From Isurus oxyrinchus (taxonomy: Eukaryota), in contig JANJGN010000004.1 in the NCBI GenBank assembly GCA_026770705.1, positions 87,916,001-87,980,000 of the forward strand: DNA of 64,000 bases, written 5' to 3'. This document shows, one piece after another, positions 2,059 to 29,711 of the stretch. Within the stretch, counting starts at the first letter, position 1, and each line of letters opens with the position of its first letter. The notes beneath the pieces were generated by a model, which was not told where the DNA came from, did not search any database, and worked only from the letters and a program-made list of their open reading frames with translations. The position numbers were made by a program, and so were the translations under genes.

Positions 2059-2560
2059 CAGTATATCATCCAGCTTGTGGTAATTTCATTCTTAATTAAA
2101 GACTCTAAAATATATTTTTCTACCACAGATGCTAAACTAACTAACTTGTAATTACCCAGATTTTCTCTGCCTCCCTTTTTAAAATGGTTTAAATTGGCTA
2201 CATTCCAATCCTCCAGCTTACCTCCACACTCAATGGAGTCCTGAAAAATATTTTGTGCAGTCTTGACAATTTCCACCTCCCCTTCCCTTAGGATTCTAGG
2301 ATGTATCCCCGTCAGCTCTGATGCATTGTCTGCCTTTAATCTAAATAACTTATTTAAAATTTTACTTTTGCCCATCATAATGTTAATTATGTTCCCAATT
2401 CCGAATTCACTTCCTTGCAATATCCTTATCTTTCATAGCTACCAAAGTAAAGTACTTATTAAATATCTATGCCATTTTTGATCATTATTTACAGTTTGAC
2501 AGTTCTCTGCTCTTGGAGGCCCCACCTTGTTTTTAACAATTTTTTTTATTGATAGACTTA
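2058..2560 (-). mobile_element. CR1-type LINE ORF2 fragment (RT N-terminal region)
   Basis: ORF 2058-2420 contains LKADNASELTGIHPRILRE and KKGGRENLGNYKLVSLASVV, degenerate forms of the CR1 motifs GPDGIHPRVL and KKGxxxxPGNYRPVSLTS. Confidence 0.75.
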
Positions 2561-3133
2561 TAAAATACTTATCATGCTTTTTTTGATGTTTTTTGAAACC
2601 TACCTTAGTTTTCCATGAAAGGGGCAGGCACAGTTAAAACCAGGAGGCTTTTATTTTTCATGGCTAATGAAGCAGGATTGTTATCTGGACACCTTCTGGT
2701 GGCGAATAGTACGATTTTAAACTACTATATGTGAGCCAGAAGCTGTGTTTGTTTGCTGATGATTTGCAAAGAGGTTCTGTTCTCTGTAAAGGAGTACATG
2801 CCGTTGTTCCAAGAGTGAGGCAGCAATAGCCCAACCATCCCTACATTGTGACTTGGAATGAGCTGGAAAATACGTGGCATTGTCAGTAGAGCAAGAGAGA
2901 TATCTGGTGTGAGTATGAAGAAAAGATGCTGCAGCAGTAGGGAGATGGCTTGATTGAGCAGCTTCTCTTTTTATTCCTGTTGGTGTGGAATGGTTGAACC
3001 ATCAGACAGAGGGAGGGGCTTCCAACTGTCGTAAAAAAGGAGTTTGAGTTTCAGCAGACAAAGGTGTGAATGATTTCAGCAGCTGTCGTGCATTTTGTAG
3101 TTGTTTCCCCATGTCTGTCTACAAATAAGCTAT

Positions 3134-3709
3134 GGGGGCTTGGCCTAAATAGCCAAGTGGTTATGGTACTGGGTTTGGAACCCCAAAAATCAAGAGTTCA
3201 AATGTCACAAAGGCAAAACTATCAAGAGTTCAAATCTCACAATGGCAAACTATGAAACAATGTAACTTCATCTGAAACAGATGGAAACGGGTTTGTACTC
3301 GAAAGAAATCAAGAGTTCAAATCTCATAATGGTAAACTATGAAACAATGTAACTTCATCTGAAAAACAGATGGAAATGGGTTTGTACTCAAAAGAGTTAC
3401 AAATAAGCTATGGGGGCTTGGCCTAAATAGCCAAGTGGTTATGGTACTGGGTTTGTAACCCCAAGATTCAAGAGTTCAAATGTCACAATGGCAAACCATG
3501 AAACAATGTAACTTCATCTGAAACAGATGGAAATGGGTTTGTACTCGAAAGAGTTGCATCTATTTAACAAGCTTGGCCTAAATAGCCAAGTGGTTATGGT
3601 AATGGGTTTAGAATCCCAAAATCAAGAGTTCATATCTCACAATGGCAAACTATGAAACAATGTAACTTCATCTGAAACAGATGGAAACATGTTTGTACTT
3701 GAAAGAGTT
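3134..3709 (+). repeat. Array of tRNA-Thr(TGT)-derived SINE-like units: truncated unit 3134-3220, half units 3221-3307 and 3308-3398, full units 3412-3555 and 3571-3709
   Basis: A-box TAGCCAAGTGG, D-stem GCCA/TGGT, anticodon arm GGG-TTTGTAA-CCC (TGT) and B-box GAGTTCAAATC, then a body with hairpin CATCTG-AAA-CAGATG and tail TCGAAAGAGTT. Acceptor and T stems are mismatched, so this is not a functional tRNA. Confidence 0.85.
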
Positions 3710-3711
3710 AA

Positions 3712-4749
3712 ATGTTCCCCGAGCCGAAAGAAAAATTGAAAACCCAGAGGGTGGAGTGTCCGGGAGGGCTGGGAAAGGAGGAGGGGGCCTCGGAAATGGA
3801 GGTCTCCCTAGCCCCCAGCCTGACCCGGAAGAGGCGTCACGCTTCGGAGGAGGAAGTGGGCGATGCCCAAACTGAAGAAGTTGGGTGTGTCCCTTCCCCT
3901 GATGAAGAGGTGGTGGCGTCTCCACCCAGTAAAACCTCGCCCTGCCCTCTGGGAGAACCCGAAACACAAACCCCTACCACTGTTCCCCCTAACACTCTGC
4001 TGCAGTCCCCTGAACAGGGCTCCTCGGGGGTCACTGAGGGCACCTCCCTTGAGGTGGTGTCCGACTCCAGGGCACTTAATACCCCCGAGGTACTTTCTAG
4101 CTCGTCGGGGGATTGCAGGTTTGAAATTTTAAAGAATATAAATGGGTCATTGGGTGGCGGCGAAAAGGAGGGCCTTCCCGCTCCCTCCCAAACCTTGACA
4201 CCGGGCGTCCTATGTTTCGGTCAGGAGCTTGTCCTGAGCTCCCCGGACGACCCGGTGCCGGGAGGAGAGCGGGCATCAGAACTGCCGCTGCCCTCTGGCC
4301 CAAAAAGTTTCGAGGAGACCAGAGAGGACTCCTCTGGCCTTGATCCTGGGGGTGGGATCGAGGCTGAGATAGAGCCAGCTGGCAGCTCCGAATCAGCCCC
4401 CGTACTCAATGCGGGGGAGGGGTTGGAAGCTGGAGGCGACGACCCGGAAGAGGACGGGGTGTCGGTGATGAGCGTTGGGGATTACGCGGAGTCGCTCTCA
4501 GGCGAGGCGGTGGATCCCCTGGTGCCCTCCACTGACTCCCCCCTCATCCCCCCAAGGGAACTCCGGGATTTTTTGTCGGGGCACCGCGGTCGCCGAGACA
4601 GGGTTCAGTTGGCCTTGGACCGGTGGCATTCATTTCCGCTGGTGTTCTGGTCCACTCGCGAGGCTCTCAAGTCTCCTGAGTTGGATAGGAACGCGCGGCG
4701 GAGGGTCCAAACGTTTCTCGCTGGGCTCCTGAAGGAGAGGAAGGACTAA
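3712..4749 (+). pseudogene. Tx1-type ORF1, C-terminal part (acidic Pro/Ser/Glu-rich region plus basic C-terminal helical domain)
   Basis: 345-codon open frame directly upstream of ORF2, ending RELRDFL...LDRW...RRRVQTFLAGLLKERKD. No N-terminal zinc-knuckle region, consistent with truncation. Confidence 0.75.
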
Positions 4750-4805
4750 AAAGTCCTCTTCTTCTTTTTAATTACTTAAGGTGAATGTTTGATGTACCTT
4801 TGACA

Positions 4806-7800
4806 ATGAAGACGACTATAGCCAGCCTCAACATCCGCGGCAGCAGGGGCGCACAGCGCAGGTTCCAGAACTTCTCGGTCCTCAGGGACGGGAAGTATGC
4901 GTTGTGCCTCCTGCAAGAAACCCATACCGTTCCAGGAGACAAAGCCACGTGGCTCCTGGAGTGGCGAGGGGGGGTCTACATGAGTCACCTAGCCTCCAAT
5001 TCTGGCGGGGTGGCTATCTTGTTGGCCCCGCATTTTCAGCCGGAGATCTTGGGGGTCAAGGAGCTGGTGCCAGGCCGGTTGCTGCACCTGACTGTGCGTC
5101 TGGGGGGGGGGCGGTGCTTCACTTCGTGAATGTATACGCTCCCCTGGGCACGCAGCAGCAAGCGAGCTTCTTTGAAGAAGTGTCCACTCATCTCGGCTCC
5201 ATCGACGCTGGCGAGTGCATCGTCCTCGGGGGGGGATTTCAATTGCACCCTCGGGGTCCGGGACCGTCACGGTACCCCACACTGCACGCGAGGTGTGAGT
5301 AAGTTGCGGGACCTGGTCAGGTCCTTCGACTTAGTGGACGTCTGGCGAAATCGCCATCCTGACTCCAGCGTGTTCACCTTTGTGTCACCTGGAGTCGGAG
5401 CGTCCAGACTCGACCGCCTTTACATTTCAAAGGCGTACGTGTCCTGTGTTCCGGCTGCTTCTATACGGCAGGTTCCGTGCACGGACCACCATCTGGTGTG
5501 GGCGGAGCTCACTTCGTTCTGCGCTCGGACGGGGTCCGCGTACTGGCATTTTAATAACCTGTTGTTGGAAGACCAGCGGTTCCTGGACTCGATCCGTCGT
5601 TTCTGGGCCAGCTGGAGAAGGAAGCAGGGAGGCTTCCCCTCCTTGAGGCTATGGTGGGACGTGGGCAAGACTCACGTCCGAGTTTTCTGTCAAGAGTACG
5701 CGAAGGGGTCGACAAAGAGACGCAAATCCAGGGTCGAGGAGTTGGAGAAGGAGGTGCTCGACCTGGAGGCACATCTCCGTCAGCCTGATGCGGACCCGGC
5801 CCTGCGGTCGGTGTACGATGAGAAGAAGGGTGCGCTGCGGGACCTGCAACTGGTCGGGTCTCGGGGCGCGTTCGTGAGGTCGCGGATCCGGTTCCTCAGG
5901 GAGATGGACCGTGGCTCCCCCTTCTTCTACTCGCTGGAAAAAAGGCACGGGGTCCATCAGCAGCTCTTTACGCTGCTGGCCGACGACGGATCCCTTGTCT
6001 CAGATCCGGAGGGCATCAGGGCCATCGCCCGAGATTACTACACTGCCCTGTTCTCTCCGGATCCATCCAGCGAGGACGCTTGCAGAGTTTTGTGGGAGGA
6101 CCTGCCACAGGTCGGCCCGGACTGCGCCGGAAGGCTTGACTCCCCTATAAGTCTGGGGGAGCTGACTGGCGCACTCGACGGTCTTTCTAGGGGCAAATCC
6201 CCGGGACTAGACGGGCTGACCGTGGAGTTCTTCAGGACGTTCTGGGACGTCTTGGGGAGCGACTTCGCGGGGGTCCTGGGGGAGAGCATTGCTACCGGGG
6301 AGATGCCCCTTTCGTGGCGCAGGGCCGTGATTGCCGTGCTGCCGAAGAAGGGGGATCTCCGCCTTCTTAAAAACTGGCGCCCGGTCTCCCTCCTCAGCAC
6401 GGACTACAAAATCTTCGCCCGAGCCATGTCTTCCCGGCTCGGCACCGTGCTTGACCACATGATCCACCCTGACCAGTCCTACACCGTCCTGGACCAAACC
6501 ATTTATGATAATATCCATCTGGTCCGGGACATCATCCACTATTCCCAGAGGGCTGGTCTGTCGAGCGCCTTCCTGTCTCTCGATCAGGAGAAGGCGTTCG
6601 ACAGGGTGGATCACGGATACTTACTCGGAACTCTGCGAGCGTTTGGGTTCGGGACGCATTTTGTCGCCCGGATCTGACTTCTGTACACCGCCGCGGAGTG
6701 TCTATGAAGGTTAACGGGTCCCTGACGGCGCCCCTTCGCTTTGGGAGTGGGGTACGTCAGGGCTGCCCCCTGTCTGGCCAGTTGTATTCTATTTACGTGG
6801 AGCCTTTCCTGCGCCTCTTGTGGAGGAGGTTGTCGGGATTGGTCCTGCGCGGGCCGGGCATCGGGGTGGTCCTTTCAGCTTATGCCGATGACGTGCTCCT
6901 TATGTTTAGTGACCCGGCTGACCTGCGGAGGATGCGCGAGTGCCAGGAGGTCTACTCTGCTGCTTCTTCTGCCAGGATCAACTGGGGTAAATGTTCTGGA
7001 CTCCTGGTCGGTCAGTGGCAGATGGATTCCCTACCCGAGGAGCTCAGGCCTTTCACCTGGAGCAGGACCAGCCTCCTCTACCTGGGGGTCCATCTCTGCC
7101 CCGCTGAGGAATCCTGGCCGGCAAACTGGCAGGAACTGGAGACGAAAGTCACCGCTCGCCTGCGGCGCTGGACAGGACTGCTCCGAGTGCTATCTTACCG
7201 AGGTCGAGTTCTGGTCATAAACCAGCTGATCGCCGCCATGTTGTGGTATCGGCTGGTCACTTTGACCCCTCCCCCGGACTTTGTCACAAGAATCCAGAGA
7301 TTGTTAGTCGACTTCTTCTGGGACAAAAGATTGCACTGGGTCGCTGCCGAGGTTCTGAGTCTCCCGCTTAGGGAGGGCGGTCAGGCGCTAGTGTGCCTAC
7401 GCACACAGGTGGCGACTTTCCGCCTTCAAACCCTGCAGCGATACCTCTACGTCGAGCATCCTCCTAGATGGTGTGCCCTGACGACGTATTTCTTCCGTCA
7501 GGTGCACGGCCTGAATTATGACGTGCAGCTCCTGTTTATAGAACAGCTGGGCCTCGGTGGCTCCTTGCAGGCGTTGCCCATCTTTTACCAGGACCCGATC
7601 AAAGTCTGGAAAGTGGTCGCATCGTGACGCAGCTCTCCCCCGTCAGGAGTAGCGGCTATCGTCAGAGAGCGGCTGCTCAGGAATCCACTCCTCCGTCCCT
7701 TTCAGTGGTTGGCGGAGAGGAGGGCTGTGGCCGCAGGGGTGACCAGGATCGGGGACGTGCTGGGTGGCGGAGGACTGGGCTGGATGCTCCCGCAGGAGTT

Positions 7801-8698
7801 GGCGCGACGCGCGTCTGTGAGTGTCCAGGTCGCAGCCGATGCCATCCAAGACCTGAGAATGGTCGTGCTCGGACCCGACATTATTTTGTGTCTTGAGGTG
7901 GCCCAGGTGTACGGTGGTCTTCCGTCTGAACGTTCCCCTGTTCGGACGGAATTCCACATTGGCCCCAAGCCCCGAACCCTGCCTCGGGTGCTGGTGCCCC
8001 ACAATATGAGCTGCCTCGGGGACATGCCCTCCGTGCCTTTTGGCACAGCAAAGAGGGGCTTTTTGTACGGACTGCTGCCGCACACCTTCCATTTTCTCGC
8101 CCTTGTCCGCCGCCCGGACATGCCCTGGCGTGCCTTGTTGCCGTCTGGCGGCAGAGGCCCCCGATGGGAGGCCCTCTACGGAGGTGTCCTCCCCCTTTCT
8201 ATCGGGGACCTGGGTTGGAGGGTGTTGCATGCAGCAGTCCCCTATAATAAGAGGATGCATAGGTTCATGGACTCTCAGGACACGTGCCCTTTTTGCGGTC
8301 TTGTGGAGTCCGTGGAACATGTATACATAGGGTGTTGTAGGCTGCACTCCCTTTTCAGTTATTTGAAAAACCTTTTATTGATGTTTTGTTTGCACTTCAG
8401 CCCCACGCTCCTGATCTATGGGCACCCGGTGCGGAAGGGGGTCGGGAAGGAGGAGGACCTCCTCGTGAACCTGCTCCTGGGCCTGGCCAAGTTGGCCATT
8501 AACAGGTCCAGGCAGCGGGCGATCGACGGGGGAGTCCCGCCCAATTGTTTGTCCCTCTTCCGCGGCTACGTTCACTGCTGGATGTCCCTGGAGAGGGAGC
8601 ACACGGTGTCTGCTGGCACTCTCGAGGCCTTCCGTGCTCGGTGGGCACCGCGGGGACTGGGGTGTTTTGTTGACCCCTTTAATCACATTTTGATTTAA
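4806..8698 (+). pseudogene. Tx1-type ORF2 (APE endonuclease-RT-zinc finger), disrupted
   Basis: Endonuclease: MKTTIASLNIRG..LLQETH, GGDFNC, SRLDRLY, TDHH. RT: KSPGLDGL, NWRPVSLLSTDYKI, LDQEKAFDRV, GVRQGCPLSG, AYADD. Zinc finger: CPFCGLVESVEHVYIGC. Frameshifts at ~5105, ~5230 and ~6700; stops at 6675 and 7625. Confidence 0.93.
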
Positions 8699-8807
8699 TG
8701 TTTGTAAGTTTCCTTTAAACTTTGTTCTTGGTTTTACAGCTGACCTGAATTAGGGGCTGTGCCTGATTTATCCCGATTTTGTTGATTTGGTTTTCATTTA
8801 AAAGATT

Positions 8808-9384
8808 ATCAAGAGTTCAAATCTCACAATGGCAAACTATGAAACAATGTAACTTCATCTGAAACAGATGGAAACGGGTTTGTGCTCGAAAGAGTATCAA
8901 GAGTTCAAATCTCACAATGGCAAACTATGAAACAATGTAACTTCATCTGAAACAGATGGAAACGGGTTTGTACTCGAAAGAAATCAAGAGTTCAAATCTC
9001 ATAATGGTAAACTATGAAACAATGTAACTTCATCTGAAAAACAGATGGAAATGGGTTTGTACTCAAAAGAGTTACAAATAAGCTATGGGGGCTTGGCCTA
9101 AATAGCCAAGTGGTTATGGTACTGGGTTTGTAACCCCAAGATTCAAGAGTTCAAATGTCACAATGGCAAACCATGAAACAATGTAACTTCATTTGAAACA
9201 GATGGAAATGGGTTTGTACTCGAAAGAGTTGCATCTACTTAACAAGCTTGGCCTAAATAGCCAAGTTGTTATGGTAATGGGTTTAGAACCCCAAAATCAA
9301 GAGTTCATATCTCACAATGGCAAACTATGAAACAATGTAACTTCATCTGAAACAGATGGAAACATGTTTGTACTTGAAAGAGTT
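8808..9384 (+). repeat. Second array of the tRNA-Thr-derived units: halves 8808-8895, 8896-8982, 8983-9073; full units 9087-9230, 9246-9384
   Basis: 8896-9384 is nearly identical to 3221-3709 at offset 5675, including private variants (CTCATAATGGTAAA, GAAAAACAGA) and both spacers. Confidence 0.88.
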
Positions 9385-9386
9385 AA

Positions 9387-10424
9387 ATGTTCCCCGAGCC
9401 GAAAGAAAAATTGAAAACCCAGAGGGTGGAGTGTCCGGGAGGGCTGGGAAAGGAGGAGGGGGCCTTGGAAATGGAGGTCTCCCTAGCCCCCAGCCTGACC
9501 CAGAAGAGGCGTCACGCTTCGGAGGAGGAAGTGGGCGATGCCCAAACTGAAGAAGTTGGGTGTGTCCCTTCCCCTGATGAAGAGGTGGTGGCGTCTCCAC
9601 CCAGTAAAACCTCGCCCTGCCCTCTGGGAGAACCCGAAACACATACCCCTACCACTGTTCCCCCTAACACTCTGCTGCAGTCCCCTGAACAGGGCTCCTC
9701 GGGGGTCACTGAGGGCACCTCCCTTGAGGTGGTGTCTGACTCCAGGGCACTTAATACCCCCGGGGTACTTTCTAGCTCGTCGGGGGATTGCAGGTTTGAA
9801 ATTTTAAAGAATATAAATGGGTCATTGGGTGGCGGCGAAAAGGAGGGCCTTCCCGCTCCCTCCCAAACCTTGACACTGGGCGTCCTATGTTTAGGTCAGG
9901 AGCTTGTCCTGAGCTCCCCGGACGACCCAGTGCCGGGAGGAGAGCGGGCATCAGAACTGCCGCTGCCCTCTGGCCCAAAAAGTTTCGAGGAGACCAGAGA
10001 GGACTCCTCTGGCCTTGATCCTGGGGGTGGGATCGAGGCTGAGATAGAGCCAGCTGGCAGCTCCGAATCAGCCCCCGTACTCAATGCGGGGGAGGGGTCG
10101 GAAGCTGGAGGCGACGACCCGGAAGAGGACGGGGTGTCGGTGGTGAGCGTTGGGGATTACGCGGAGTAGCTCTCAGGCGAGGCGGTGGATCCCCTGGTGC
10201 CCTCCACTGACTCCCCCCTCATCCCCCCAAGGGAACTCCGGGACTTTTTGTCGGGGCACCGCGGTCGCCGAGACAGGGTTCAGTTGGCCTTGGACCGGTG
10301 GCATTCATTTCCGCTGGTGTTCTGGTCCACTCGCGAGGCTCTCAAGTCTCCTGAGTTGGATAGGAACGCGCGGCGGAGGGTCCAAACGTTTCTCGCTGGG
10401 CTCCTGAAGGAGAGGAAGGACTAA
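9387..10424 (+). pseudogene. Tx1-type ORF1 C-terminal part, copy 2 (premature TAG at 10167-10169)
   Basis: ORFs 9387-10169 and 10185-10424 are collinear with 3712-4749; TCG has become TAG. Confidence 0.75.
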
Positions 10425-10480
10425 AAAGTCCTCTTCTTCTTTTTAATTACTTAAGGTGAATGTTTGATGTACCTTTGACA

Positions 10481-13400
10481 ATGAAGACGACTATAGCCAG
10501 CCTCAACATCCGCGGCAGCAGGGGCGCACAGCGCAGGTTCCAGAACTTCTCGGTTCTCAGGGACGGGAAGTATGCGTTGTGCCTCCTGCAAGAAACCCAT
10601 ACCCTTCCGGGAGACGAAGCCACGTGGCTCCTGGAGTGGCGAGGGGGGGTCTACATGAGTCACCTAGCCTCCAATTCTGGCGGGGTGGCTATCTTGTTGG
10701 CCCCGCATTTTCAGCCGGAGATCTTGGGGGTCAAGGAGCTGGTGCCAGGCCGGTTGCTGCACCTGACTGTGCGTCTGGGGGGGGGGCGGTGCTTCACTTC
10801 GTGAATGTATACGCTCCCCTGGGCACGCAGCAGCAAGCGAGCTTCTTTGAAGAAGTGTCCACTCATCTCGGCTCCATCGACGCTGGCGAGTGCATCGTCC
10901 TCGGGGGGGATTTCAATTGCACCCTCGGGGTCCGGGACCGTCACGGTACCCCGCACTGCACGCGAGGTGTGAGTAAGTTGCGGGACCTGGTCAGGTCCTT
11001 CGACTTAGTGGACGTCTGGCAAAATCTCCATCCTGACTCCATCGTGTTCACCTTTGTGTCACCTGGAGTCGGAGCGTCCAGACTCGACCGCCTTTACGTT
11101 TCAAAGGCGTACGTGTCCTGCGTTCCGGCTGCTTCTATACGGCAGGTTCCGTGCACGGACCACCGTCTGGTGTGGGCGGAGCTCACTTCGTTCTGCGCTC
11201 GGACGGGGTCCGCGTACTGGCATTTTAATAACCTGTTGTTGGAAGACCAGCGGTTCCTGGACTCGTTCCGTCGTTTCTGGGCCAGCTGGAGAAGGAAGCA
11301 GGGAGGCTTCCCCTCCTTGAGGCTATGGTGGGACGTGGGCAAGACTCACGTCCGAGTTTTCTGTCAAGAGTACGCGAAGGGGTCGACAAAGAGACGCAAA
11401 TCCAGGGTCGAGGAGTTGGAGAAGGAGGTGCTCGACCTGGAGGCACGTCTCCGTCAGCCTGATGCGGACCCGGCCCTGCGGTCGGTGTACGATGAGAAGA
11501 AGGGCGCGCTGCGGTACCTGCAACTGGTCGGGTCTCGGGGTGCGTTCGTGAGGTCGCGGATCCGGTTCCTCAGGGAGATGGACCGTGGCTCCCCCTTCTT
11601 CTACTCGCTGGAAAAAAGGCACGGGGTCCATCAGCAGCTCTTTACGCTGCTGGCCGACGACGGATCCCTTGTCTCAGATCCGGAGGGCATCAGGGCCATC
11701 GCCCGAGATTACTACACTGCCCTGTTCTCTCCGGATACGTCCAGCGAGGACGCTTGCAGAGTTTTGTGGGAGGACCTGCCGCAGGTCGGCCCGGACTGCG
11801 CCGGAAGGCTTGACTCCCCTATAAGTCTGGGGGAGCTGACTGGCGCACTCAACGGTCTTTCTAGGGGCAAATCCCCGGGACTAGACAGGCTGACCGTGGA
11901 GTTCTTCAGGACGTTCTGGGACGTCTTGGGGAGCGACTTCGCGGGGGTCCTGGGGGAGAGTATCGCTACCGGGGAGATGCCCCTTTCGTGGTGCAGGGCC
12001 GTGATTGCCGTGCTGCCGAAGAAGGGGGATCTCCGCCTTCTTAAAAACTGGCGCCCGGTCTCCCTCCTCAGCACGGACTACAAAATCTTCGCCCGAGCCA
12101 TGTCTTCCCGGCTCGGCACCGTGCTGGACCACATGATCCACCCTGACCAGTCCTACACCGTCCCGGACCGAACCATTTATGATAATATCCATCTGGTCCG
12201 GGACATCATCCACTATTCCCAGAGGGCTGGTCTGTCGAGCACCTTCCTGTCTCTCGATCAGGAGAAGGCGTTCGACAGGGTGGATCACGGATACTTACTC
12301 GGAACTCTGCGAGCGTTTGGGTTCGGGACGCATTTTGTCGCCCGGATCTGACTTCTGTACACCGCCGCGGAGTGTCTATGAAGGTTAACGGGTCCCTGAC
12401 GGCGCCCCTTCGCTTTGGGAGTGGGGTACGTCAGGGCTGCCCCCTGTCTGGCCAGTTGTATTCTATTTGCGTGGAGCCTTTCCTGCGCCTCTTGTGGAGG
12501 AGGTTGTCGGGATTGGTCCTGCGCGGGCCGGGCATCGGGGTGGTCCTTTCAGCTTATGCCGATGACGTGCTCCTTATGTTTAGTGACCCGGCTGACCTGC
12601 GGAGGATGCGCGAGTGCCAGGAGGTCTACTCTGCCGCTTCTTCTGCCAGGATCAACTGGGGTAAATGTTCTGGACTCCTGGTCAGTCAGTGGTAGATGGA
12701 TCCCCTACCCGAGGAGCTCAGGCCTTTCACCTGGAGCAGGACCAGCCTCCTCTACCTGGGGGTCCATCTCTGCCCCGCTGAGGAATCCTGGCCGGCAAAC
12801 TGGCAGGAACTGGAGACGAAAGTCACCGCTCGCCTGCGGCGCTGGACAGGACTGCTCCGAGTGCTATCTTACCGAGGTCGAGTTCTGGTCATAAACCAGC
12901 TGATCGCCGCCATGTTGTGGTATCGGCTGGTCACTTTGACCCCTCCCCCGGACTTTGTCACAAGAATCCAGAGATTGTTAGTCGACTTCTTCTGGGACAA
13001 AAGATTGCACTGGGTCGCTGCCGAGGTTCTGAGTCTCCCGCTTAGGGAGGGCGGTCAGGCGCTAGTGTGCCTACGCACACAGGTGGCGACTTTCCACGTT
13101 CAAACCCTGCAGCGATACCTCTACGTCGAGCCTCCTCCTAGATGGTGTGCCCTGACGACGTATTTCTTCCGTCAGGTGCACGGCCTGAATTATGACGTGC
13201 AGCTCCTGTTTATAGAACAGCTGGGCCTCGGTGGCTCCTTGCAGGCGTTGCCCATCTTTTACCAGGACCCGATCAAAGTCTGGAAAGTGGTCGCATCGTG
13301 ACGCAGCTCTCCCCCGTCAGGAGTAGCGGCTATCGTCAGAGAGCGGCTGCTCAGGAATCCACCCCTCCGTCCCTTTCAGTGGTTGGCGGAGAGGAAGGCT

Positions 13401-14372
13401 GTGGCCGCAGGGGTGACCAGGATCGGGGACGTGCTGGGTGGCGGAGGACTGGGCTGGATGCTCCCGCAGGAGTTGGCGCGACGCGCGTCTGTGAGTGTCC
13501 AGGTCGCAGCCGATGCCATCCAAGACCTGAGAACGGTCGTGCTCGGACCCGACGTTATTTTGGGTCTTGAGGTGGCCCAGGTGCACGGTGGTCTTCCGTC
13601 TGAACGTTCCCCTGTTCGGACGGAATTTCACATTGGCCCCAAGCCCCGAACCCTGCCTCGGGTGCTGGTGCCCCACAATATGAGCCGCCTCGGGGACATG
13701 CCCTCCGTGCCTTTTGGCACAGCAAAGAGGGGCTTTTTGTACGGACTGCTGCCGCACACCTTCCATTTTCTCGCCCTTGTCCGCCGCCCGGACACGCCCT
13801 GGCGTGCCTTGTTGCCGTCTGGCGGCAGAGGCCCCCGATGGGAGGCCCTCTACGGAGGTGTCCTCCCCCTTTCTATCGGGGACCTGGGTTGGAGGGTGTT
13901 GCATGCAGCAGTCCCCTATAATAAGAGGATGCATAGGTTCATGGACTCTCAGGACACGTGCCCTTTTTGCGGTCTTGTGGAGTCCGTGGAACATGTATAC
14001 ATAGGGTGTTGTAGGCTGCACTCCCTTTTTAGTTATTTGAAAAACCTTTTATTGATGTTTTGTTTGCACTTCAGCCCCACGCTCCTGATCTATGGGCACC
14101 CGGTGCGGAAGGGGGTCGGGAAGGAGGAAGACCTCCTCATGAACCTGCTCCTGGGCCTGGCCAAGTTGGCCATTAACAGGTCCAGGCAGCGGGCGATCGA
14201 CGGGGGAGTCCCGCCCGATTGTTTGTCCCTCTTCCGCGGCTACGTTCGCTGCCGGATGTCCCTGGAGAGGGAGCACACGGTGTCTGCTGGCACTCTCGAG
14301 GCCTTCCGTGCTCGGTGGGCACCGCGGGGACTGGGGTGTTTTGTTGACCCCTTTAATCACATTTTGATTTAA
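10481..14372 (+). pseudogene. Tx1-type ORF2, copy 2, disrupted
   Basis: Same endonuclease, RT and zinc-finger motifs as copy 1. Shares four lesions with copy 1 and has a private TAG at 12693-12695. Confidence 0.93.
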
Positions 14373-14481
14373 AGTTTGTAAGTTTCCTTTAAACTTTGTT
14401 CTTGGTTTTGCAGCTGACCTGAATTAGGGGCTGTGCCTGATTTATCCCGATTTTGTTGATTTGGTTTTCATTTAAAAGATT

Positions 14482-14570
14482 ATCAAGAGTTCAAATCTCA
14501 CAATGGCAAACTATGAAACAATGTAACTTCATCTGAAACAGATGGAAATGGGTTTGTGCTTGAAAGAGTT
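14482..14570 (+). repeat. 3' half of the tRNA-derived unit, followed by the locus TSD ACAAATAAGCTAT (14571-14583)
   Basis: ATCAAGAGTTCAAAT...TGAAAGAGTT, then the 13-mer also seen at 3121-3133. Confidence 0.88.
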
Positions 14571-17500
14571 ACAAATAAGCTATTTCACAAAAAAAGTAGA
14601 TGGAATAACACTGAACACTGCCTCCATCACGATAAAATAAAGGAATAAGCATTGTGCAAAAAGACAGAAGTTCTGTTCAAAAAACCAAAAATAAGGATCT
14701 TTCTAATTGGCAATACCAGCCTGTCTGCCTTTCCCTAAAGACAGAAAGTGCCTAAGTGGGAGTTGTGGGATCAGTATAACACTTGGATGTGGAAATGTTC
14801 AGCAGGGTGGGCAGAATCTGGAGAGATAAACAGGATTAACATACTAAATTTTAACACTTTGATCTGCTCACAGCAGGGGAAACTGGTAGCTGGTCAGGAA
14901 CACAAAAGTTTGTGCTGTGGGTTTCTCAGTGGTTCTCTAACTGAGCCACAGCATTAGCATCCCATTGGTTTCCTAACCAATCATAGTAGACAGTCATGGT
15001 GTTGATCCAAAACTGGGTGTTGGAAATTCACTATTTTTATGAATCCTACATGGGTGTGAATGTCAAGAGAGAGCCAGCTGCCTGACAGATGGAGTGTCAG
15101 TGAAGACTGGCTGCCCCATGGTTCTCAGATGGATCCCTGGAAATCATGCTGCAGGCTCTGTTCTTCTAAAATGTGAGGAAGAAAGGTGCCGTAAAACAAT
15201 CAGACCTGGCTAGAAGTAATGTTCCCTCACTCGTGGATACAATGCCAGAAGAGGTTTAATGACCTATACATTCAAATGCAGACTTCCTCTCTATGCCTTC
15301 CCCAGCTTTCTCCTGCACATTACTCCTAAGACCAACAAACTTGTAGATGCACACATGCCTTCTTTGTCGTGACACCTTCGCACATCTCCATCTGACTGGC
15401 CACCACTAACATTCACCATCATCTTATACCCATCCCTATCAGTGACCCTCCAAAAATGTTGTCCTTCCATCCTCTTGAAACAATCCACAGCTTAAACAGC
15501 TTGATTTCTTCTTGGAGAAGATAATACAGGACAGCATGGAGAGGCAGAGAACCAGGAGTGACCCAAAGGTCATAACAACCCTGACAGCAACACAAGAGGA
15601 AGCACTAGAGAGAAGCTGAGTCTTGGTGTGCCTGGCTATTAGAAAGGTAGGGATCTTACAGTTACCTGGTAACAGAATTAAATTCAGCACTGCCAATGGC
15701 AGACTACACTCACTCACATAGATTTGATGTCACTAGCAACTGATATATGATGGTCAGCATAATGACGACTTAGAGCTTTCTTACCTTGTCAGCTCTAATT
15801 CATGTTTTTCATTTCCCACAGGTCCCAGAAGTGTTGCTGAGCAGCCAGCGTTGGAGGAGGATGAAAACCCCTCAGAGGAGGGCACTCACTCTGAGGAAGC
15901 ACCAACTCATGTGCGCCCTCCCCCATCTCAAATACACACGCCTTGGTGAAGCCACAAAAACAGGGAGTTGGATAGTCAGATGTTGAAGTGCACATCACAA
16001 ATTAGCATGGGCAGATGCTGGAAACAGCTATACAGTGAAGGGTGCACATTGACAACCCAAGCTCTGTTCAGCCGGATGCGAATGCTGAGCTTTGGGAGTC
16101 ATCAATGAAGAGGACTATTCTGACGCAGCAGCAGAAAATGTGTGAGGCTCTGTCAGCATTTCCAGCTGCACTGTGCACGATTAGAGAGAGATTGAAGGAT
16201 TCCATTTCTAGCCTGAGTTCTATGATGTCTTAGACATTCACACTGAGTCTCCATCCATGCCACCCGAATGGATCATCAGACATGGTAGTACACTGAGTAA
16301 ATGCAGGAGCTCATCAATGGCCAGCAGACTCAGACTCTACACCTTAAGCAGGATGGAGGAAATCCTCATCTTGGCCTGCCTCACTGAAGTGCAGCAGAGT
16401 GTTCACCAGCTTTTGGCTTCCAGAGGAGTGTGGGCAGGCCATGAGAGGGAAGAAGGAGAAATGACAGATGGAAGTGGGGGCTCTGCTCAAAGTGCTTCCT
16501 CTCCTCACTGCTTCCCACCACCGCGTTTCCCATTACCCAAGCCCACACCTGCCTGCTTTGTCAGAGTCTCAAATGCTATCACCTACCCAATGGCCAAGTT
16601 TGCCCCTTCACAGTTGCAGGTGGAACAGTCACAAGCTCCAAAATTACATTGGCCATGAGCATCTGAGCAGTCAGGTCAGGGAAAATGAGTAGCCTGACTC
16701 TAGCACTGATGAAGTGGTTGCACCACATAGGGGTAAAAAGAAAAGAAGGGAAAAAGATTTGTAGTTGCTTAAGTTGCTTATTGTTTAACACTTTCTTAAA
16801 TTATCACATTTCTGGTCAGTCTTTCTCAACTGTAAATTTTATTGCAAAGTTCCATTGTCCCATCCTCAGCACCTGAACCTCTGGCCAAGTGCCCTACAGT
16901 ATAGTGGAGAATGCTTTGCTGAGAGTTGAAATGGATATTGGGTCTCTGTATGTGGGACGGATTATTGATTGTGGGACTGTTTTTGCTGAGGTCTGGGGTA
17001 CAGCTGCAGTGATTTCAGATTTGGTTTGCCAGATGGCCACACTGCCTCAGGATAGCTGAATTTCACCTTAATCCTGATGCATCCAGGCATCTGAATTACA
17101 TTTCCAGCATCACAAGGGTTTACTCGATGAAGCTTCCTGTGCTCAAAATGGCTTCCATTATACCTTTCCTGAGCTTCAGTGGTAGGACCTTGAACCTGTC
17201 AGTCTTTCCTCAGGCACAATGTACTATTGGAGAGAGTGGAGAATTCTGTCTCTATCCTGTGTGTCATGACTTCTCAGGCCTTCGCACTGATGCCTGTGCC
17301 CATGGAAAGAGTGGCCACCTCCCTCCAGCACCAAAGGCAGCAATAAACCAAGTACATGCTGTCCCTGACCAATGAGCTGCAGTCAGTCTGCCAGCATAAA
17401 CAGGACGAAGGAAATAATTTCCTTGGCCATTCAATGCTCAGAGGACTTTGACCAAGAACATCTGAGCAGCCAGAGCTGGAAAACGAGCAGGCTGCCTCAA

Positions 17501-18228
17501 GCTCTACTGAAGCTAAAGTTATAGAAATGCATCAGTGCAATAGAAAAAGGAAGAGAAAGAAGTTGTACTTTGACAAGAGTAATCACTTATTGCTGTATTA
17601 AATCATCATAAACATTATTCAAATCAATATTCAGTGCTGCCCATTGTTGCCTGTCACTCGACAAGTGGTTTTCAGCCTTGAGGAAAATGGTATGTCAATA
17701 TTAGAAAATAAGCAATAGGTGTCAGTGAGAGGGATAGACTGTTGACTGTGAGACTGCTTTGTGCTGGAGGCAGGAAGCAGGGGGGAATGGGGAATGGGGG
17801 TACACTGGGTTCAGCATTGCCATGCCAATAGGCTGCACTACCTCAGATTAGTTGAAGAGTGCCAGAACGAGTATGTCCTGCACATCACTAGCTGTTAGGT
17901 GAGCGGCTGCAGGAACCCTCGCTACAGCATGTTCCTCCTCTTCCTCCTCAGCCATCTGCTGCGCCTTGCCTCTTTTGAAGATGCAGAGCAGTCAACATCT
18001 TCCTCCTCCTGCAGTTCCAGTCCTCTCTGCTGCACTATACTGTGCAAGACACACTGCACCATTATCATCCTGGCCACCTAGGCTGGTGCTACTGAACAGC
18101 GTACACAGGGACCTGAATCACATCTTCAACATCCCAATAGTTTGCTCAATGACTACCCTCGTGCTCACACAGTTCCGATAATGCCTTTTCAAGGCATCTG
18201 TGGTGGGGCTCCACATAGGTGTTGTCAT

Positions 18229-19285
18229 ATTCATAACTTTAGACATGGACTGTGCTCATATGGAAGTTCTAGAACTGTCTTTTCTTTATTTAAAGTGGAC
18301 ACTGAGCTGTTAAAATAGCTGCCAAAGGGTCAAATGACCATTGCTTATTTAACACAGAATATCAAGCTTCATGAAAGTTCTGATTGAATGGCCCTGGGTG
18401 GGGACCTCCCTCTGGAATGGACATACCAAGATGAATATTTTCTGTAGGTTTCACACCCATCATTGTTTGAAGTTTATTCAAAACACAGAGTCAATGGACT
18501 CCGAGACTCTTTGTTTCCAGGTTTACAATTCAACAAAGGAAAGCTAATGAGAACAATTATCCACAAGTTAAGTGTGTAAGACTACCATCTATCTCCTAGT
18601 GTAGTGATGACTTTGCACTTCCAAACCATTCTTGTTGGACAACACCAGTATTGGTTGTGTGATCGAAACCAGCTTGTGATAATGAGTTTCTCTGAAGACT
18701 CAGGGAATCCAGGGAAGTCTGCAGAATCAAAGAGACAGCAACTGCGGGAAAGGCAGTGCCATCTTTGCCTTTCAAGAACCAAAAAGTTGTAACATCTTTA
18801 AAAAACCTCCTAGCATGATTCCAAAACTCCAAGTCCATCTACAAAGAAATTTGATCTCCTGATAAAAAAAACACAAGTGCCCAGCTTCGTGACCTGCTGA
18901 ACATTCATCACTTCAAAGAAATTCTGCAACAATCCAGATATATTACTTCAACTATTTTAGACCCATTGGAACTACTATTCAAAAGTAGAAAATGACTCCT
19001 CTTTACTGGACCCACACTGTCTGATCTCCGGCAACAAGTCAAACATGTGAACTGTTGACTATTCTTTTTGTTTAACACTTGTAGAAGTGCACTATCTCCT
19101 TTAATTGTATCTTTCTTGAATGTGAATGATGTAGTGTTTAGACTTTTTTGGGGGGAATGTGTGAACAAATAGCCTTCTTTATTTTTAAACCCATGAAAAT
19201 CTGCTGCTGTCTGTTTAAATTGACCACACGAAAACCTTTCCAAAAAACAGAACAGAAAAAAATGGACAGAAGGGAATTGGGGTTT
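18229..19285 (+). other. AT-rich insert between Harbinger transposase pieces; decayed reading frame resembling the C-terminal half of a viral envelope glycoprotein
   Basis: Manual translation across stops and frameshifts gives a Cys-containing segment, a helical stretch, a hydrophobic segment (LSPLIVSFLNVNDVVFRLFGGMCEQIAFFIF), CCC and a short basic tail. Identity not established. Confidence 0.25.
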
Positions 19286-20107
19286 CAGTTAATCTCTCCT
19301 CCTCTGTCTGTAACAGTGTCATCAGCCACGTCCTTAGAGGATATCCCTTGTCACCAATTGACTCTGATTGGAGGTGCGAACATCTGTGGGAGACTTGACT
19401 AGCATAGGATGAAGGCATAGTAGCATTCCATTGGTATTTAGCCAGATATGCATGATAGCCTTTCAGTGGTTGCATACCAGCTGAAGATTGATGGAGTGGC
19501 ATCCCTATTGGTTGATGAATAATGCTGGGTGATCTAAAGGCATCTTGATTTCCACATGTGTGTAATCTATGACTTTCTGTACCTGTGGGAACCCGTCCAG
19601 AGCAGTAAAGCAGAGGGTGGTTTCATTCTAATTGGCATGATCAGTAGCAAAGTAGGTGTAAGTGATGAACCTAGACAAAACATGGCATTTGTCACCTGGG
19701 GCATACATATTGCAAAAGAGATTGTGAAATTTTACAGTTGTCAATAGCAGATCCCTGGAAGGAGCTGGAAGCAAAGAAATTCAGGGTTATGGTGATCTTG
19801 CCCACCACAAGCAATATGGACCCGTCTGGTCCACTTGGAAGCATATCTTCTTCCAGGAGGCTGAAAATATCAGCAACAGCCTGTTGGGGAGTCTGAGCTG
19901 CTTAAGGCACAGGAACTCTGCCGTCTCTTGAAATCCTCTGCCTATATATGTTACATTGGGGTATTGCCTCTGCATACTGGAGCTCCACAGTCTTTTCCTT
20001 TGCCCTGTGGAGCAACAGATAGTTGAGGAGAAGGGAGCTGCTCCTGTGGTGCTGCCCAGTTGCTGGTGGTGTTGCTGGTTCTGCTCCTCTTTTTCGTCAT
20101 CAGAGGT

Positions 20108-20215
20108 CCAAGTTCTGATGAAGAGTCCTACAGACTTGAAACGTTAACTCTGTCTTCCCCTCCGCAGATGCAGTCAGACCTGCTGAGTTTTTCCAGCTAT
20201 TTTTGTTTTTGTCCA
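20108..20215 (+). ncRNA. Penelope-like-element terminal repeat fragment with a minimal hammerhead ribozyme motif
   Basis: AGTT-CTGATGA-A-GAGTC(ctaca)GACTT-GAAAC-GTT-AACT: core boxes CUGAUGA and GAAA, stem I AGTT/AACT, stem II and palindromic stem III. Degenerate relatives at ~20680-20830, 29640-29710(-), 49570-49670, 58120-58310 and 59060-59175. Confidence 0.6.
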
Positions 20216-20904
20216 AGATCCCCTGCTGCTGAGAAAGCTGACAGCTGGGAAGTAAAGATCAAAGCCAAAAAACAAACTCCAAGATAGCGAAGTAGTAAAA
20301 GCGCACTCTCAGAATAAATCCTGTGAATAAAGGCTTATCACTTAGGCCAGCTGTCATAGCTCAGTGCTTAAATGCATTCCAGCCTGTCACTTGCTCAGCC
20401 CTGTCAATCCCTGCTGTCCTGTCAGCTTAATCAAACTGTTGAATTCCAGGAAACCCAGGAACCCTATGCGAAGCAGAATCCAGGATAAAAATGCACTCAA
20501 TTGTCTTTTAACATATGTTAATAGCAGACCTGCATGTCCCATGAGGATTTCCTGAAAGTTTAAGTTAAATGTGACAGTTGGCAGACACCTGCCAGCTTCC
20601 TGACTGGTGTTTCTTCCTCTTTTGCCCTTCCTTCTGCACTGCCACTTGTCCACTCGGGAAGTTAAAATTCTGCCCTATGTTTCAAGTCAATGACTTTTTG
20701 TCGAATGAAAGGTCATTGACCTGAGGCAATAACTCTGTTTCTCTCCCCACAGATGCTATCTGACCTGCTGAGTATTTCCAGCATTCGCTGTTTTTATTTC
20801 AGATTTCTAGCATCCACAGTATTTTGTTTTACTTTTCTAGTATGTGTTTCAAGTGCTGTTCAAGGAATTTGGAGTACAGCGGACTCTGGCACTTATTTGT
20901 ATAG

Positions 20905-23902
20905 TTATCAATGTGGTTGACTCTTACATGCCCTCTGAAATGGTTTAGGAAGCCACTCAGTTGTACCAAACTGCTACAAGGTCACAAAAAAGGAACAAAA
21001 CCGGACGGACCATCCAGCATCGACCTAGGAACCAGAAACAACAATGTTAATCGCAGCCCTGTCGACCCTGCAACATCTTATTAACATCTGGGGGCTAGTG
21101 CCAAAATTGAAAGAGCTGTCTCACAGACTAGTCAAGCAACAGTCTGACATAGTCATCCTCACAGAATCATACCTTACAGATAATGTCCCAGACACCACTA
21201 TCATCATCCCTGGGTATGTCCTGTCCCACCGGCAGGACAGACCCAGCAGAGGTGGCGGCACAGTGGTATACAGTCAGGAGGGAGTTGCCCTGAGAGTCCT
21301 CAACATTGACTCTAGTCCCCATGAAGTCTCTTGGCATCAGGTCAAACATGGACAAGGAAAGCTTCTGCTGATTACCATGTACCGCCTCCCCTCAGCTGAT
21401 GACTTGGTGCTCCTCCATGTTGAACATCACTTGGAGGAGGCACTGAGGGTGTCAAGGGCACAGAATGTACTCTGGGTGGGGGACTTCAATGTCCATTACC
21501 AAGAGTGGCTAGGTAGCACCACCACAGACCGAGCTGGCCGAATCCTAAAGGATAAAGCTGCTAGACTGGGTCTGCGGCAAGTGGTGAGGGAACCAACAAG
21601 AGGGAAAAACATACTTGACCTCATCCTCACCAACTTGCCTGCCGCAGATGCATCTGTCCATGACAGTATCGGTAGGAGTGACCATCGCATAGTCGTTGTG
21701 GAGACAAAATCCCATCTTCAAATTGAGAATACCATCCATCGTGTTGTGTAGCACTACCACCATGCTAAATTAAACAGATTTCAAATAGATTTAGCAACTC
21801 AAGACTGGGCCTCCATGAGGCGCTGTGGGCCATCAGCAGCAGCAGAATTGTACTCGAACACAATATGTAACCTCATGGCCCAGCATATCCTCCACTGTAA
21901 CATTATCATCAAGCCAGGAAATCAACCTTGATTCAATGAAGAGTATAGGAAGGCATGCCAGGAGCAGCACCAGGCATACCTAAAAATGAAGTGTCAACCT
22001 GGTGAAGCTATAACACAGGACTACTTGTGTGCCAAAAAACATAAGGAACAAGTGATAGACAGAGCTAAGCGATCCCACAACCAATGGATCAGGTCTAAAC
22101 TCTGCAGTCTTGCCACATCCATTTGTGAATGGTGGTGGTCAATTAAACAACTCACTGAAGGAGGAGGCTCCACAAATATCCCCATCCTCAATGATGGAGG
22201 AGCCCAGCACATCAGTGTAAAAATAAGGCTGAAGGACTTACAACAATCTTCAGCCAGAAGTGCCGAGTGGATGATCTATCTTGGCCTCCTCCGGAGTTCC
22301 CCAGTATCACAGGCCTAGTCTTCAGCCAATTCGATTCATTCCATGTGATATCAAGAAACGGCTGATGGCACTTGATACTGCAAAGGCTACAGGCGCTGAC
22401 AATTCTCCGGCAATAGCACTGATAACTTGTGCTCCAGAGCTTGCTGCGCACCTAGCCAAGCTGTTCCAGTACAACTACAATACTGGCATCTACCTGGCTA
22501 TGTGGAAAATTGCCCAGGTATGTCCTGTGCAGAAAAAGCAGGACAAATCCAACCTGGCCAATTACCACCCCATTAGTCTATTCAAGATCATCAGTAAAGT
22601 AATGGAAGGGGGTCATTAACAGTGCTATAAAGTGGTACGTGCTTAGCAATAACCTGCTCACTGGCACCTAGTTTGGGTTCCGCCAGGGTCACTCAGCTCC
22701 TGACCTCATTACAGCCTTAGTTCAAACATGGACAAAAGAGCTGAGCTCCCGAGGTGATGTGAGGGTGATTGCCTTTGACACCAAGGCAGCATTTGACCGA
22801 GTGTGGCATCAAGGAGCCCTAGCAAAACTGGAGTCAATGGAAACCAGGAGGAAAACTCTCCACTGGTTGGAGTCATATCTAACACAAAAGAAGATGGCTG
22901 TGGTTGTTGAAGGTCAGTCATCTCAGCCCCAGAAAATCACTGCAGGAGTTCCTCAGGGTAGTGTCCTTGGCCCAACCATCTTCAGCTGCTTCATCAATGA
23001 CCTTCCTTCCATCGTCAGCGGGGATGTTTACTGAAGATTGCATAATTTTTGGCACCATTTGCGACTCCTCAGATACTGAAGCAGTTCATGTCCAAACGCA
23101 GCAGGGCCTGGACAATATCCAGGCTTGGGCTGACAAGTGGCAAATAACATTTGCACCACACAAGTGTCAGGCAATGACCATCTCCAACAAGAGAGAACCT
23201 AACCATCATTCCTTGATGTTCAATGGCATTACCATGACTGAATCCCCCACTTTCAACATCCTGGGTGTTACCATTGACCAGAAATTGAACTGGACTGGCC
23301 ATATAAATACTGTGGCTATATGAGCAGGTCAGATGCTAGGAATCGTGCGATAAGTAACTCACCTCCTGATTCCTGAAAGCCTGTCCACCATCTACAAGGC
23401 ACAAGTCAGGAGTATGGTGGAATACTCTCCATTTGCCTGGATGAGTGCAGCTCCCACAATACTCAAGAAGCTTGACACCATCCAGGACAAAGCAGCCCAC
23501 TTGATTGGCACCACATCCACAAATATTGACTCCCTCCACCATTGACGCACAGTAGCAGCAGTGTGTACCGTCTACCAGATGCACTGCAGGAACTCACCAA
23601 GGCTTCTTTGAAGCATCTTCCAAACCCACAACCACTTCCATCTAGAGGGACAAGGGCATCAGATAGTTGGCAACACCACCTCCAAGTCACTCACCACCCT
23701 GACTTGGAAGTATATTGCCATTCCTTCACTGTTGCTGGGTCAAAATCCTGGAACTCCCTTCCTAACATCACTGTGGGAGTACCTACACCACATGGACTGC
23801 AGCAGTTCAAGAAGGCTGCTCACAATCACCTTCTCAAGGGCAACTAGGGATGGGCAATAAATGCCAGTGAAGCTTACATCCTGTGAATGAATAAAAAGAA
23901 AA
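20905..23902 (+). mobile_element. Near-full-length decayed CR1-group LINE (single endonuclease-RT ORF)
   Basis: Endonuclease: IVILTESYL, WVGDFNVH, NILDLILTN, SDHRIV. RT: KATGADN, KAAFDRVWH, GVPQGSVLGP. 3' tail GGGCAATAAATG...GAATGAATAAAAAG. Many stops and frameshifts. Confidence 0.88.
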
Positions 23903-23984
23903 GACATTTACATAGCTGACAACTTTTTTTATGTGCTGATGCCAGAAAAGCCATAGAAAAGAACTTTATATGCAGTATTCACAG

Positions 23985-24240
23985 ATTCACAGAATTTTAA
24001 TGGCACAGAAGGAGGCCATTCACCCATCATCGTGTCTTCACTGGCTCTCCAAATGAGCATTATGACCTAGTGCCATTGCCCTGCCTTTTCCCAGTACCCC
24101 TGCACATTGTTTCTATTCAAATAATGATCTAATGCCCTCTTGAATTCCTTGATTGAACCTGCCACCACCATGCACCGCAGCGCATTCCAGTTCTGAACCA
24201 CTAGTGTGAAAAAGTATTTTCTCACGTCACATTTGTATTA
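23985..24240 (-). mobile_element. CR1 3'-end fragment
   Basis: CACAGAAGGAGGCCATT...CATTCCAG...ACCACT pattern shared with the tails at 51340-51530, 55975-56300 and 62030-62465. Confidence 0.6.
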
Positions 24241-25599
24241 TTCGAGAGCAAAATATCAGCTCTATTTAGGAGCAGGGCAGAGGAAAGTCGTCCCTAATAT
24301 TTCTCAGCTACGGGCAGTTGGATGACCAATGGAATAATTACTCAGGGTGATAAACAATGTTCATGACAGCATTCAATATGTCATTGCTCCTCAAACTGGC
24401 TGTGATTTGGTTAGTCCTGGAATCAAACCAATTGGAAATGTGCAATTCAGCTTTTTATTTTTTGGGATAAATTAGCTTTCTGGTTAAATAGAAGAAATTC
24501 CTATTCTTTTAAGTAACAGGATAGGTTTTCCTACTGTTTGGTGTTGAGCTAAACCAAGCAGGATTCCTGATTTGTGCTGAGTTAGCTGTCCTCAGATAGA
24601 ATACCCTTAGGCTAAGAATGGGAGAAATTAGCTGGGATTCTCACTGCTGATTGTTATTTAGTGATTTTCACCAGGAAGTGCATATGTGGAAATTGGGAGA
24701 GGGCAGCATTGGATACAGCAGTGATTCCTTCCTATGATCTATTAGCCTGCCGACACTCAGGGCAAATTGAATGAGGTTACACTCTTGAAAGGTGTTGAGC
24801 CAGAGGACCAGGGTTATGCCTCCAACTACTGCTCCAAGTAGAGAGACCCAGCATCATATTTACAGCCTCTCTCAATTTGCCATTTACTGCCAAGAGAAGA
24901 ATGACCATATAAATCAGATGCCAAAAGGTAGCTGACATCGATATTAACACAGCTCAATACCAGTCAATGTCTTCAGGAGGGGAGAAGAGGGAATGTTTTG
25001 AGGTGGAGGGGGGAGCAGTGAGGTTCGAAGGAATGCGAGGTCCCTTTTAAATTTAATATTACCTTATGTTGTGTGTGTGCACACATTTATGTGTGTGCGT
25101 GTCTATACTTGTGTGCATATGTGAGATACATGCAGGAAAGTACAAAATAAATAAAAACATAGATTGTTTCAAAGCATTCTCAGTCATATCTGTAACCCAC
25201 AGATTTCATTAAAAAATCTCAGCAGAACGTCTGAAAATCCATTTGAATGCTCATTTGTGATCTCTTGGTAACAAGCTGATGTTTACAATGACTCAGTTCC
25301 TGGGTCAAAACTGAGCAACATGTTTTGGGAACCCAAACTGCAACTGGTCAAGTTTGAGTGCTGCAGGATGGTTAGCGTCGAACATGTTCTCCAACCTAAG
25401 GTTCAGATTTTTATCTTTACTTATGTCGAACTTCACATTTCAATAATTTGTATCAATGGTAATCTTGACCAGGAGTTCCATAGCCCCTTTCTCACCACCC
25501 CCATTCTCTCAATCTTGTTCCAACTAATCTGCCGATCACCCAGCTTCCCCTCCTGGTCTCCCGGTTAGCCAATATTGTAAATGGTTTTCGCTCTGAACA

Positions 25600-29620: not shown

Positions 29621-29711
29621 AAGAGGCCCTTTTGTATCAATAATAAAAATAGGAAGCACTGGAAAATCTCAGCATGTCTGGCAGCATCTGTGGAGAGAGA
29701 AACAGAGTTAA

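Follow-up and report, generated by a model that had tools for sequence, protein, structure and literature searches.

A probable SINE stack with target-site-type spacers beside a Tx1-clade LINE in Isurus oxyrinchus

A repeat-spacer array near the left end of a 64,000-nucleotide stretch of Isurus oxyrinchus DNA (contig JANJGN010000004.1; "the window" hereafter) is probably a stack of SINEs whose spacers are likely target-site duplications (TSDs) trapped between neighbouring insertions, spacer 1 being local and spacer 2 likely derived from a multi-copy site elsewhere. We hold this reading, and the history proposed for it below, with moderate confidence. It agrees with the sequence-only reading in that the layout was made by retrotransposition and that its CRISPR likeness is superficial.

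Organization of the Locus

The six coordinates previously given for spacers and flanks were all correct. A 13-mer occurred exactly at 3121, 3399, 9074 and 14571, with no further site in the 64 kb at up to two mismatches. A 15-mer lay at 3556 and again at 9231 with a single T/C difference, which the T/C variation in the search string proposed earlier covers in full. The flanking 13-bp duplication had rightly been equated with spacer 1, but its true length was 14 bp (3120–3133 and 14570–14583); similarly, the positions of the array spacers stood but their limits did not, the first 3 nt of both being part of the SINE unit. The spacers at 9074 and 9231 were no independent instances; they were doubled copies of the 3399/3556 set, produced by a tandem duplication of 5,675 bp (3220–8895 versus 8895–14570). 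The two tandem copies were 98.7% identical, with 73 differences that included 38 of CpG type.

On the forward strand, the order of elements was A, the U1 head, Ta, Tb, A, U2, B, U3, the LINE and a half-unit, after which the stretch from Ta to the LINE was repeated and followed by a final half-unit and A. The left copy of A (3120–3133), repeated exactly at 14570–14583, is the likely TSD bounding the locus. U1 was a tRNA-like SINE head (3134–3221; departing from the read majority at 6 of 84 nt) that stopped 31–32 nt beyond a fixed internal site, Ta was a young 3′ half-unit beginning at that site (3221–3307; 1 difference in 87 nt), and Tb was an older 3′ half-unit that included the terminal ACA (3308–3401; 6 in 91 nt). 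The inner copy of A, which is spacer 1, occupied 3398–3411. It was followed by U2, a full-length 147-nt SINE with the variant GCA in place of the terminal ACA (3412–3558; 4 in 140 nt), by B, which is spacer 2 proper (3559–3570), and by U3, an older SINE without four of the five leading G (3571–3712; 9 in 139 nt). A dead, 5′-truncated Tx1-clade LINE then extended over 3715–8807, its 5′ edge being approximate, with the C-terminal part of ORF1 reaching 4749 and ORF2 at 4806–8698. Tc, a 3′ half-unit (8808–8895; 1 in 88 nt), was connected to the LINE 3′ end by a joint also present in many reads. The second tandem copy (8896–14482) comprised Ta, Tb, A (9073–9086), U2, B (9234–9245), U3 and the LINE, and ended in a terminal 3′ half-unit (14482–14573; 3 in 89 nt) and the right copy of A (14570–14583).

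The SINE Family

Copy numbers were obtained from public sequencing runs of another sample of the same species (organism A; 1.9 Gb of raw reads). Runs X21, X22 and X23 were used as reads, and a second species (organism B) as contigs. Per 1.9 Gb, the SINE head was read to a depth of ~9,900 and its 3′ half to 15,800, versus ~280 for the LINE. For an assumed genome of 3–5 Gb this corresponds to roughly 20,000–37,000 SINE copies, or 22,000–37,000 when tails are counted. Loose read ends before the head and after the tail had an agreement of only 0.33–0.37, so that flanks are mostly unrelated and the unit is a dispersed 147-nt tRNA-like SINE rather than a satellite. RNA-like runs contained 0.06–0.10 of the words, and organism B runs contained 0.35–0.38 of the words of 2300–3900.

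In line with tRNA-derived SINEs, the unit was interspersed, high-copy and non-coding, and its tRNA-like head carried box A (at 3150, 3428 and 3583) and box B, the motif of which was found in six half-units. As a candidate for the TSD expected of a SINE, the present locus had one 14-bp repeat, and no poly-A or microsatellite 3′ tail was seen. The Rfam tRNA model covered unit positions 1–71 (in U3) with 18.7 bits, below the 29-bit cut-off; no tRNA was found with ARAGORN, nor any family at cut-off in an Rfam scan of 3000–3800. A 28-nt motif of the unit gave no match in metagenome scans.

The base after the apparent unit end was A in 2,545 of 2,625 reads (X21) and 2,512 of 2,570 (X23), and loose read ends past the tail began with ACA, indicating that the GCA at spacer 2 is a mutated SINE end. 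Since the SINE end runs 3 nt into both spacers as originally drawn, the true spacers are ~10 and 12 nt long. In the predicted tail fold the terminal ACA closed an 8-bp stem (z of −2.1 to −4.2 for three tails), and the predicted stability of the whole-unit fold was not unusual (z −0.9). A hammerhead reading of the tail, examined by eye, was rejected, the core motif being absent and the stem out of register.

Several variants were seen in the tail. A 5-nt insertion in the tail hairpin at 3675–3676 was common (~1,500 loose reads per run) and also present in organism B, and at 9234 about 640 reads per run lengthened the tail by T, often followed by TG(T), at a low agreement of 0.32; this extension would lengthen the terminal stem. 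An A>G variant at 9218 was carried by 19% of organism A reads versus 0.1% of organism B contig depth. It was present in both half-units directly after the LINE (8872 and 14546), and is a possible marker of a young or LINE-borne SINE subfamily.

Spacer 1 and Site A

Spacer 1 was identical to the 14-bp outer repeat, overlapping the SINE end by 4 nt, and the 10 nt beyond the SINE's own end matched the left flank (p ~1.6e-6 at a fixed place). It is thus likely the local TSD, as had been proposed. The two inner copies of spacer 1 represent one junction, doubled by the 5,675-bp duplication. A SINE-TSD-SINE arrangement is expected when an occupied site is hit by another insertion, and tail-to-head joints were common among the reads (397 + 129 in X21 and 437 + 139 in X22, counts that cover the two main joints, ahead of 388 further joint rows). 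The pieces of the array also differed in age, with the U1 head, Tb and U3 6–7% from the read majority versus ~1% for Ta and Tc, as they would if a younger insert had come to lie beside an old SINE at A. We give double insertion a somewhat better than even chance of having produced the inner spacer 1, and a local duplication an appreciable but lesser one, the spacer being local in either case.

Under the latter explanation, which on its own we regard as possible but rather unlikely, no second insertion took place at site A, and the inner copy arose by unequal exchange at the TSD or by copying of A together with the SINE head (~101 nt). U1 and U2 have in common a five-G start, C>G at the final position of box B and one additional base around 3617–3621, close to the fixed site; the box B change and the extra base fit local duplication better than independent insertion, and count against the main reading. 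Unequal recombination between TSDs has moreover been named as a source of TSD-(SINE-TSD)n arrays (PMC11481361). Against this, the 84 nt of the U1 head held five private changes versus one in its young neighbours, its extra A at 3646 was a genome-wide variant (1,791 of 15,856 reads) that U2 lacked, and tail-head joints were frequent genome-wide. With its C>G at the last base of box B, U2 would be weakened as an active promoter.

The 31–32 nt overlap at the U1/Ta joint (3189–3253) resembled a long TSD, yet it differed from Tb at five places and is therefore no clean young TSD. It would also be explained by a 56-nt deletion between two TAT triplets.

Spacer 2 and Its Recurrence in the Genome

Reads were aligned to the tail, the copy-2 spacer 2 and 12 nt of head, an arrangement in which alignment to B favours B-like matches, and the outcomes given are those of the top-ranked rows. 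In X21, 3,520 of the 12,808 tail reads turned into another half-unit, 4,565 left right after the tail and 987 passed 9240. Among these 987, T was present at 9237 in 811, and 633 reached 9243, versus ~0.5 expected by chance (p 4e-5 per read). X23 gave a similar picture, with 994 of 12,713 tail reads continuing into B-like sequence, 795 of them with T at 9237. The B-like extension thus followed ~8% of SINE tail reads and was seen in two species; perhaps 2,000–4,000 loci carry this recurrent flank. Spacer 2 matched 11 of its 13 letters, and would be a decayed copy of it. An origin of spacer 2 in the flank of some other locus, as had been suggested, is accordingly likely, and spacer 2 indeed had no partner in the flanks of the present locus, though it was not unique genome-wide. 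The idea of the array as an informative record of earlier sites was not supported: spacer 1 is local, and spacer 2, being multi-copy, names no donor locus.

B-like sequence followed by a SINE head was present in 135 of 12,808 reads (X21) and 143 of 12,713 (X23), about 1% of tail reads, versus 0.4–0.7 reads expected from the present locus. The exact copy-2 junction was found on an X3 contig with a depth of 11.1, near the 8.45 of the longest X3 contig listed, suggesting that the exact spacer 2 variant is local and its type common. In organism B, 11 contigs ran past 9243 into a common non-SINE sequence (median 49 nt, agreement 0.52), the picture expected of a multi-copy host. This continuation had no match in the window (0.29 expected), so that B was likely imported. 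A third B-like match, at 21074, was set aside, as it was within chance (0.65 expected) and had a different continuation.

Just past U3, 3710–3717 matched the recurrent flank at 6 of 8 positions and may be what is left of a second, right-hand B, which would complete a B-U3-B pair. Beyond the SINE end 4 of 5 positions agreed (p 0.01–0.02, post hoc), and the base of the window at 3714 was kept in at most 30 of 363 reads.

Instead of a TSD created repeatedly in a host repeat, spacer 2 might be a linker or 3′ extension fixed in one SINE subfamily derived from a single master locus, a fossil flank spread by read-through. About three quarters of head-reaching reads kept both A's at 9244–9245, suggesting one amplified junction, and match depth dropped in steps between 9237 and 9243, a pattern expected of ragged RNA ends. 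However, only 135 of the 987 B-like reads reached a head, the continuation in organism B was a common, host-repeat-like non-SINE sequence on short contigs, and a possible second B follows U3; a master-locus linker is doubtful. An origin as fold-back filler, whereby joining would have produced an inverted copy of the neighbouring SINE head, is very improbable and was largely refuted by the reads at 9238. In copy 1, 7 nt matched the head in inverted orientation (p 0.007), but in copy 2 only 5 nt did so (p 0.14), and the C of copy 2 at 9238 was the genome-wide state, other letters being found in at least 39 of 854 reads, so that the longer match in copy 1 is likely derived.

Satellite and CRISPR-Like Readings

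A satellite monomer with fixed spacers would be compatible with the Tandem Repeats Finder result (period 154, 2.6 copies) and is likewise very improbable, since the 4,565 loose ends after 9230 had an agreement of 0.37 and ran into unrelated flanks, and B followed by a head was present in only ~1% of tail reads. For the SINE family, the unrelated flanks refute it. The sequence-only reading had itself named spacers occurring genome-wide as fixed satellite parts as an outcome that would speak against it; sequence resembling spacer 2 does recur across the genome, yet it is no constant piece of a satellite monomer, since most SINE ends run into unrelated flanks.

CRISPR arrays consist of short repeats (about 23–55 nt) and similar-sized, unique spacers. 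A CRISPR-like system storing target sequences as guides can be practically dismissed, as it shares the repeat-spacer layout only, whereas the units here are 147 nt and the spacers 10–12 nt long, spacer 1 is present four times and every feature follows from TSD formation. Of the 113 stop-to-stop frames listed for the window, 18 were scanned, and none of these gave a Cas family. The spacers are ordinary scars without memory function, and no function of the array is implied. They are usable as markers, since an imported scar reveals the movement of a SINE dimer in a single RNA.

The Tx1 LINE and Its Joint with the SINE

ORF2 of the LINE was 45–50% identical to the ORF2 of Xenopus Tx1L over residues 1–1291 (45–51% over its length for protein P0008), and the best identity in the protein search was 60%, over half of the query, to a stingray protein. 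By sequence comparison, ORF2 of the LINE encoded an APE endonuclease and a reverse transcriptase (RT) nearest to members of the Tx1 clade. The frame upstream of ORF2 matched only the C-terminal part of a zinc-knuckle protein, indicating that the LINE copy is 5′-truncated; in the homolog P0053 the zinc knuckle was located upstream of the matched part, and ORF1 here is the C-terminal part only. P0041, the best long ORF1 match, was set aside because it carries an RT domain. The ORF1 piece had no match to P0001, and no longer protein was matched in a word search. Metagenome scans for ORF2 relatives gave 135 pattern matches, none of which was confirmed. Both LINE copies shared stops (6675/12349 and 7625/13299) and a frame break (near 6704–6770/12378–12444). 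The LINE was thus dead before the duplication, which was likely a DNA-level event, and duplication through the activity of the LINE itself is disfavoured.

In 1,710 reads (X21) and 1,741 reads (X22), the 3′ end of the LINE met the SINE at a single, constant base immediately ahead of box B, with a consensus agreement of 0.72. Reads over this joint (8780–8815 and 14455–14490) were six times the depth of the ORF1 region of the LINE, and 27% of tail reads showed half-units stacked at this very base. The joint would be either a target site or an acquired tail of the LINE, and is a stronger lead than the spacers. Were it a target site, this Tx1 family would be directed at the promoter region of the SINE, parasitising what is likely its own parasite, and the half-unit stacks would be explained. 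It is possible, though less likely than not, that a Tx1L-like LINE targets the tRNA-derived SINE that it mobilises, cutting just before box B, and that SINE RNAs lacking a terminator read through neighbours and scars and re-insert as stacks, yielding arrays that carry the scars of several loci in age order. Such read-through is feasible, as 3121–3720 contained no T4 run (terminator). In the literature searched, which left Repbase, Dfam and subscription journals aside, no Tx1 family fixed inside a SINE was found in cartilaginous fish.

Proposed History of the Array

The following order of events and RNA steps is inferred from the arrangement of the pieces. An older SINE (U1 head to Tb) would have inserted at site A and duplicated it, and a second insertion at the same site would have left SINE-A-SINE. 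The second insert was probably a chimera, in that reverse transcription would have left a Tx1 LINE RNA within ORF1 and proceeded along a SINE-dimer RNA (U2-B-U3), the source of which may have been a locus with two SINEs stacked at a B site. A variant in which the LINE entered U2 at the fixed internal site would give the same picture. Half-units would then have been added at the fixed internal site, and finally a DNA-level tandem duplication would have doubled the 5,675 bp.

Comparison with Known Systems

The idea that the spacers hold target-site sequence was right, but the principle is already published for crocodilian SINEU-3, for the blood clam and for Drosophila dimers. In crocodilians, tandem SINEU-3 copies sandwich a TSD through sequential insertion, the TSD recurs because the target, Mariner-N4, is multi-copy, Tx1-Mar of the Tx1 clade is the likely mobiliser, and SINE heads are joined 5′ of Tx1, with 5′ extensions from donor loci (PMC4494074). 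The present locus resembles this system, as described by Kojima (2015), in its probable tandem SINE-TSD-SINE, its likely recurrent TSD from a multi-copy target, a Tx1-clade LINE as likely mobiliser, its SINE heads 5′ of Tx1 and a 5′ extension probably brought from a donor locus. It differs in that its SINE head is tRNA-like and most copies have unrelated flanks, and in that the fixed joint of the LINE lies inside the SINE itself, whereas that of Tx1-Mar lies in a Mariner element. Xenopus Tx1L is similar in ORF2 and in having a 3′ end that joins another repeat at a single, constant site, but its partner Tx1D is a non-autonomous piggyBac DNA transposon instead of a SINE (PMC1950540, PMC4494074).

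Blood clam arrays of the forms TSD-(SINE-TSD)n and TSD-(SINE)n-TSD likewise have a TSD as spacer and internal units cut off at a single point within the tRNA head; one TSD is described throughout those arrays, whereas a second, foreign spacer and a LINE are present here (PMC11481361). In Drosophila, double-insertion dimers of R1 and of the P element carry a TSD at the tandem junction, and such junction TSDs have already been used to place dimers at the insertion locus, with later expansion by unequal exchange. These dimers share the junction TSD with the present array but belong to other element classes, and no imported spacer is described in the account of them (PMC5932611). The U6/L1 and Alu/L1 chimeric insertions, SINE/LINE chimeras in which a sense-oriented, full-length small RNA or SINE sits on the 5′ side of a truncated LINE within a single TSD, are also alike; they involve mammalian L1, whereas the 5′ part here would be a SINE dimer with its spacer (bioRxiv 10.1101/2025.02.02.635956). 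PMC8869645, PMC13343379 and PMC5499810 did not bear on the present element.

Other Features of the Window

Old repeat fragments, 65–77% alike, lay on either side of the locus (91–1362 and 16275–19484), with no Pfam match in the frames scanned. A 34-bp tandem repeat of ~175 copies occupied 42432–48353. Other LINEs were represented by an endonuclease frame at 21029–21751 on the forward strand and an RT frame at 39016–40014 on the reverse strand, and a coiled-coil-like frame with weak Pfam matches (54510–55082, reverse strand) is likely an ORF1 remnant of another LINE.
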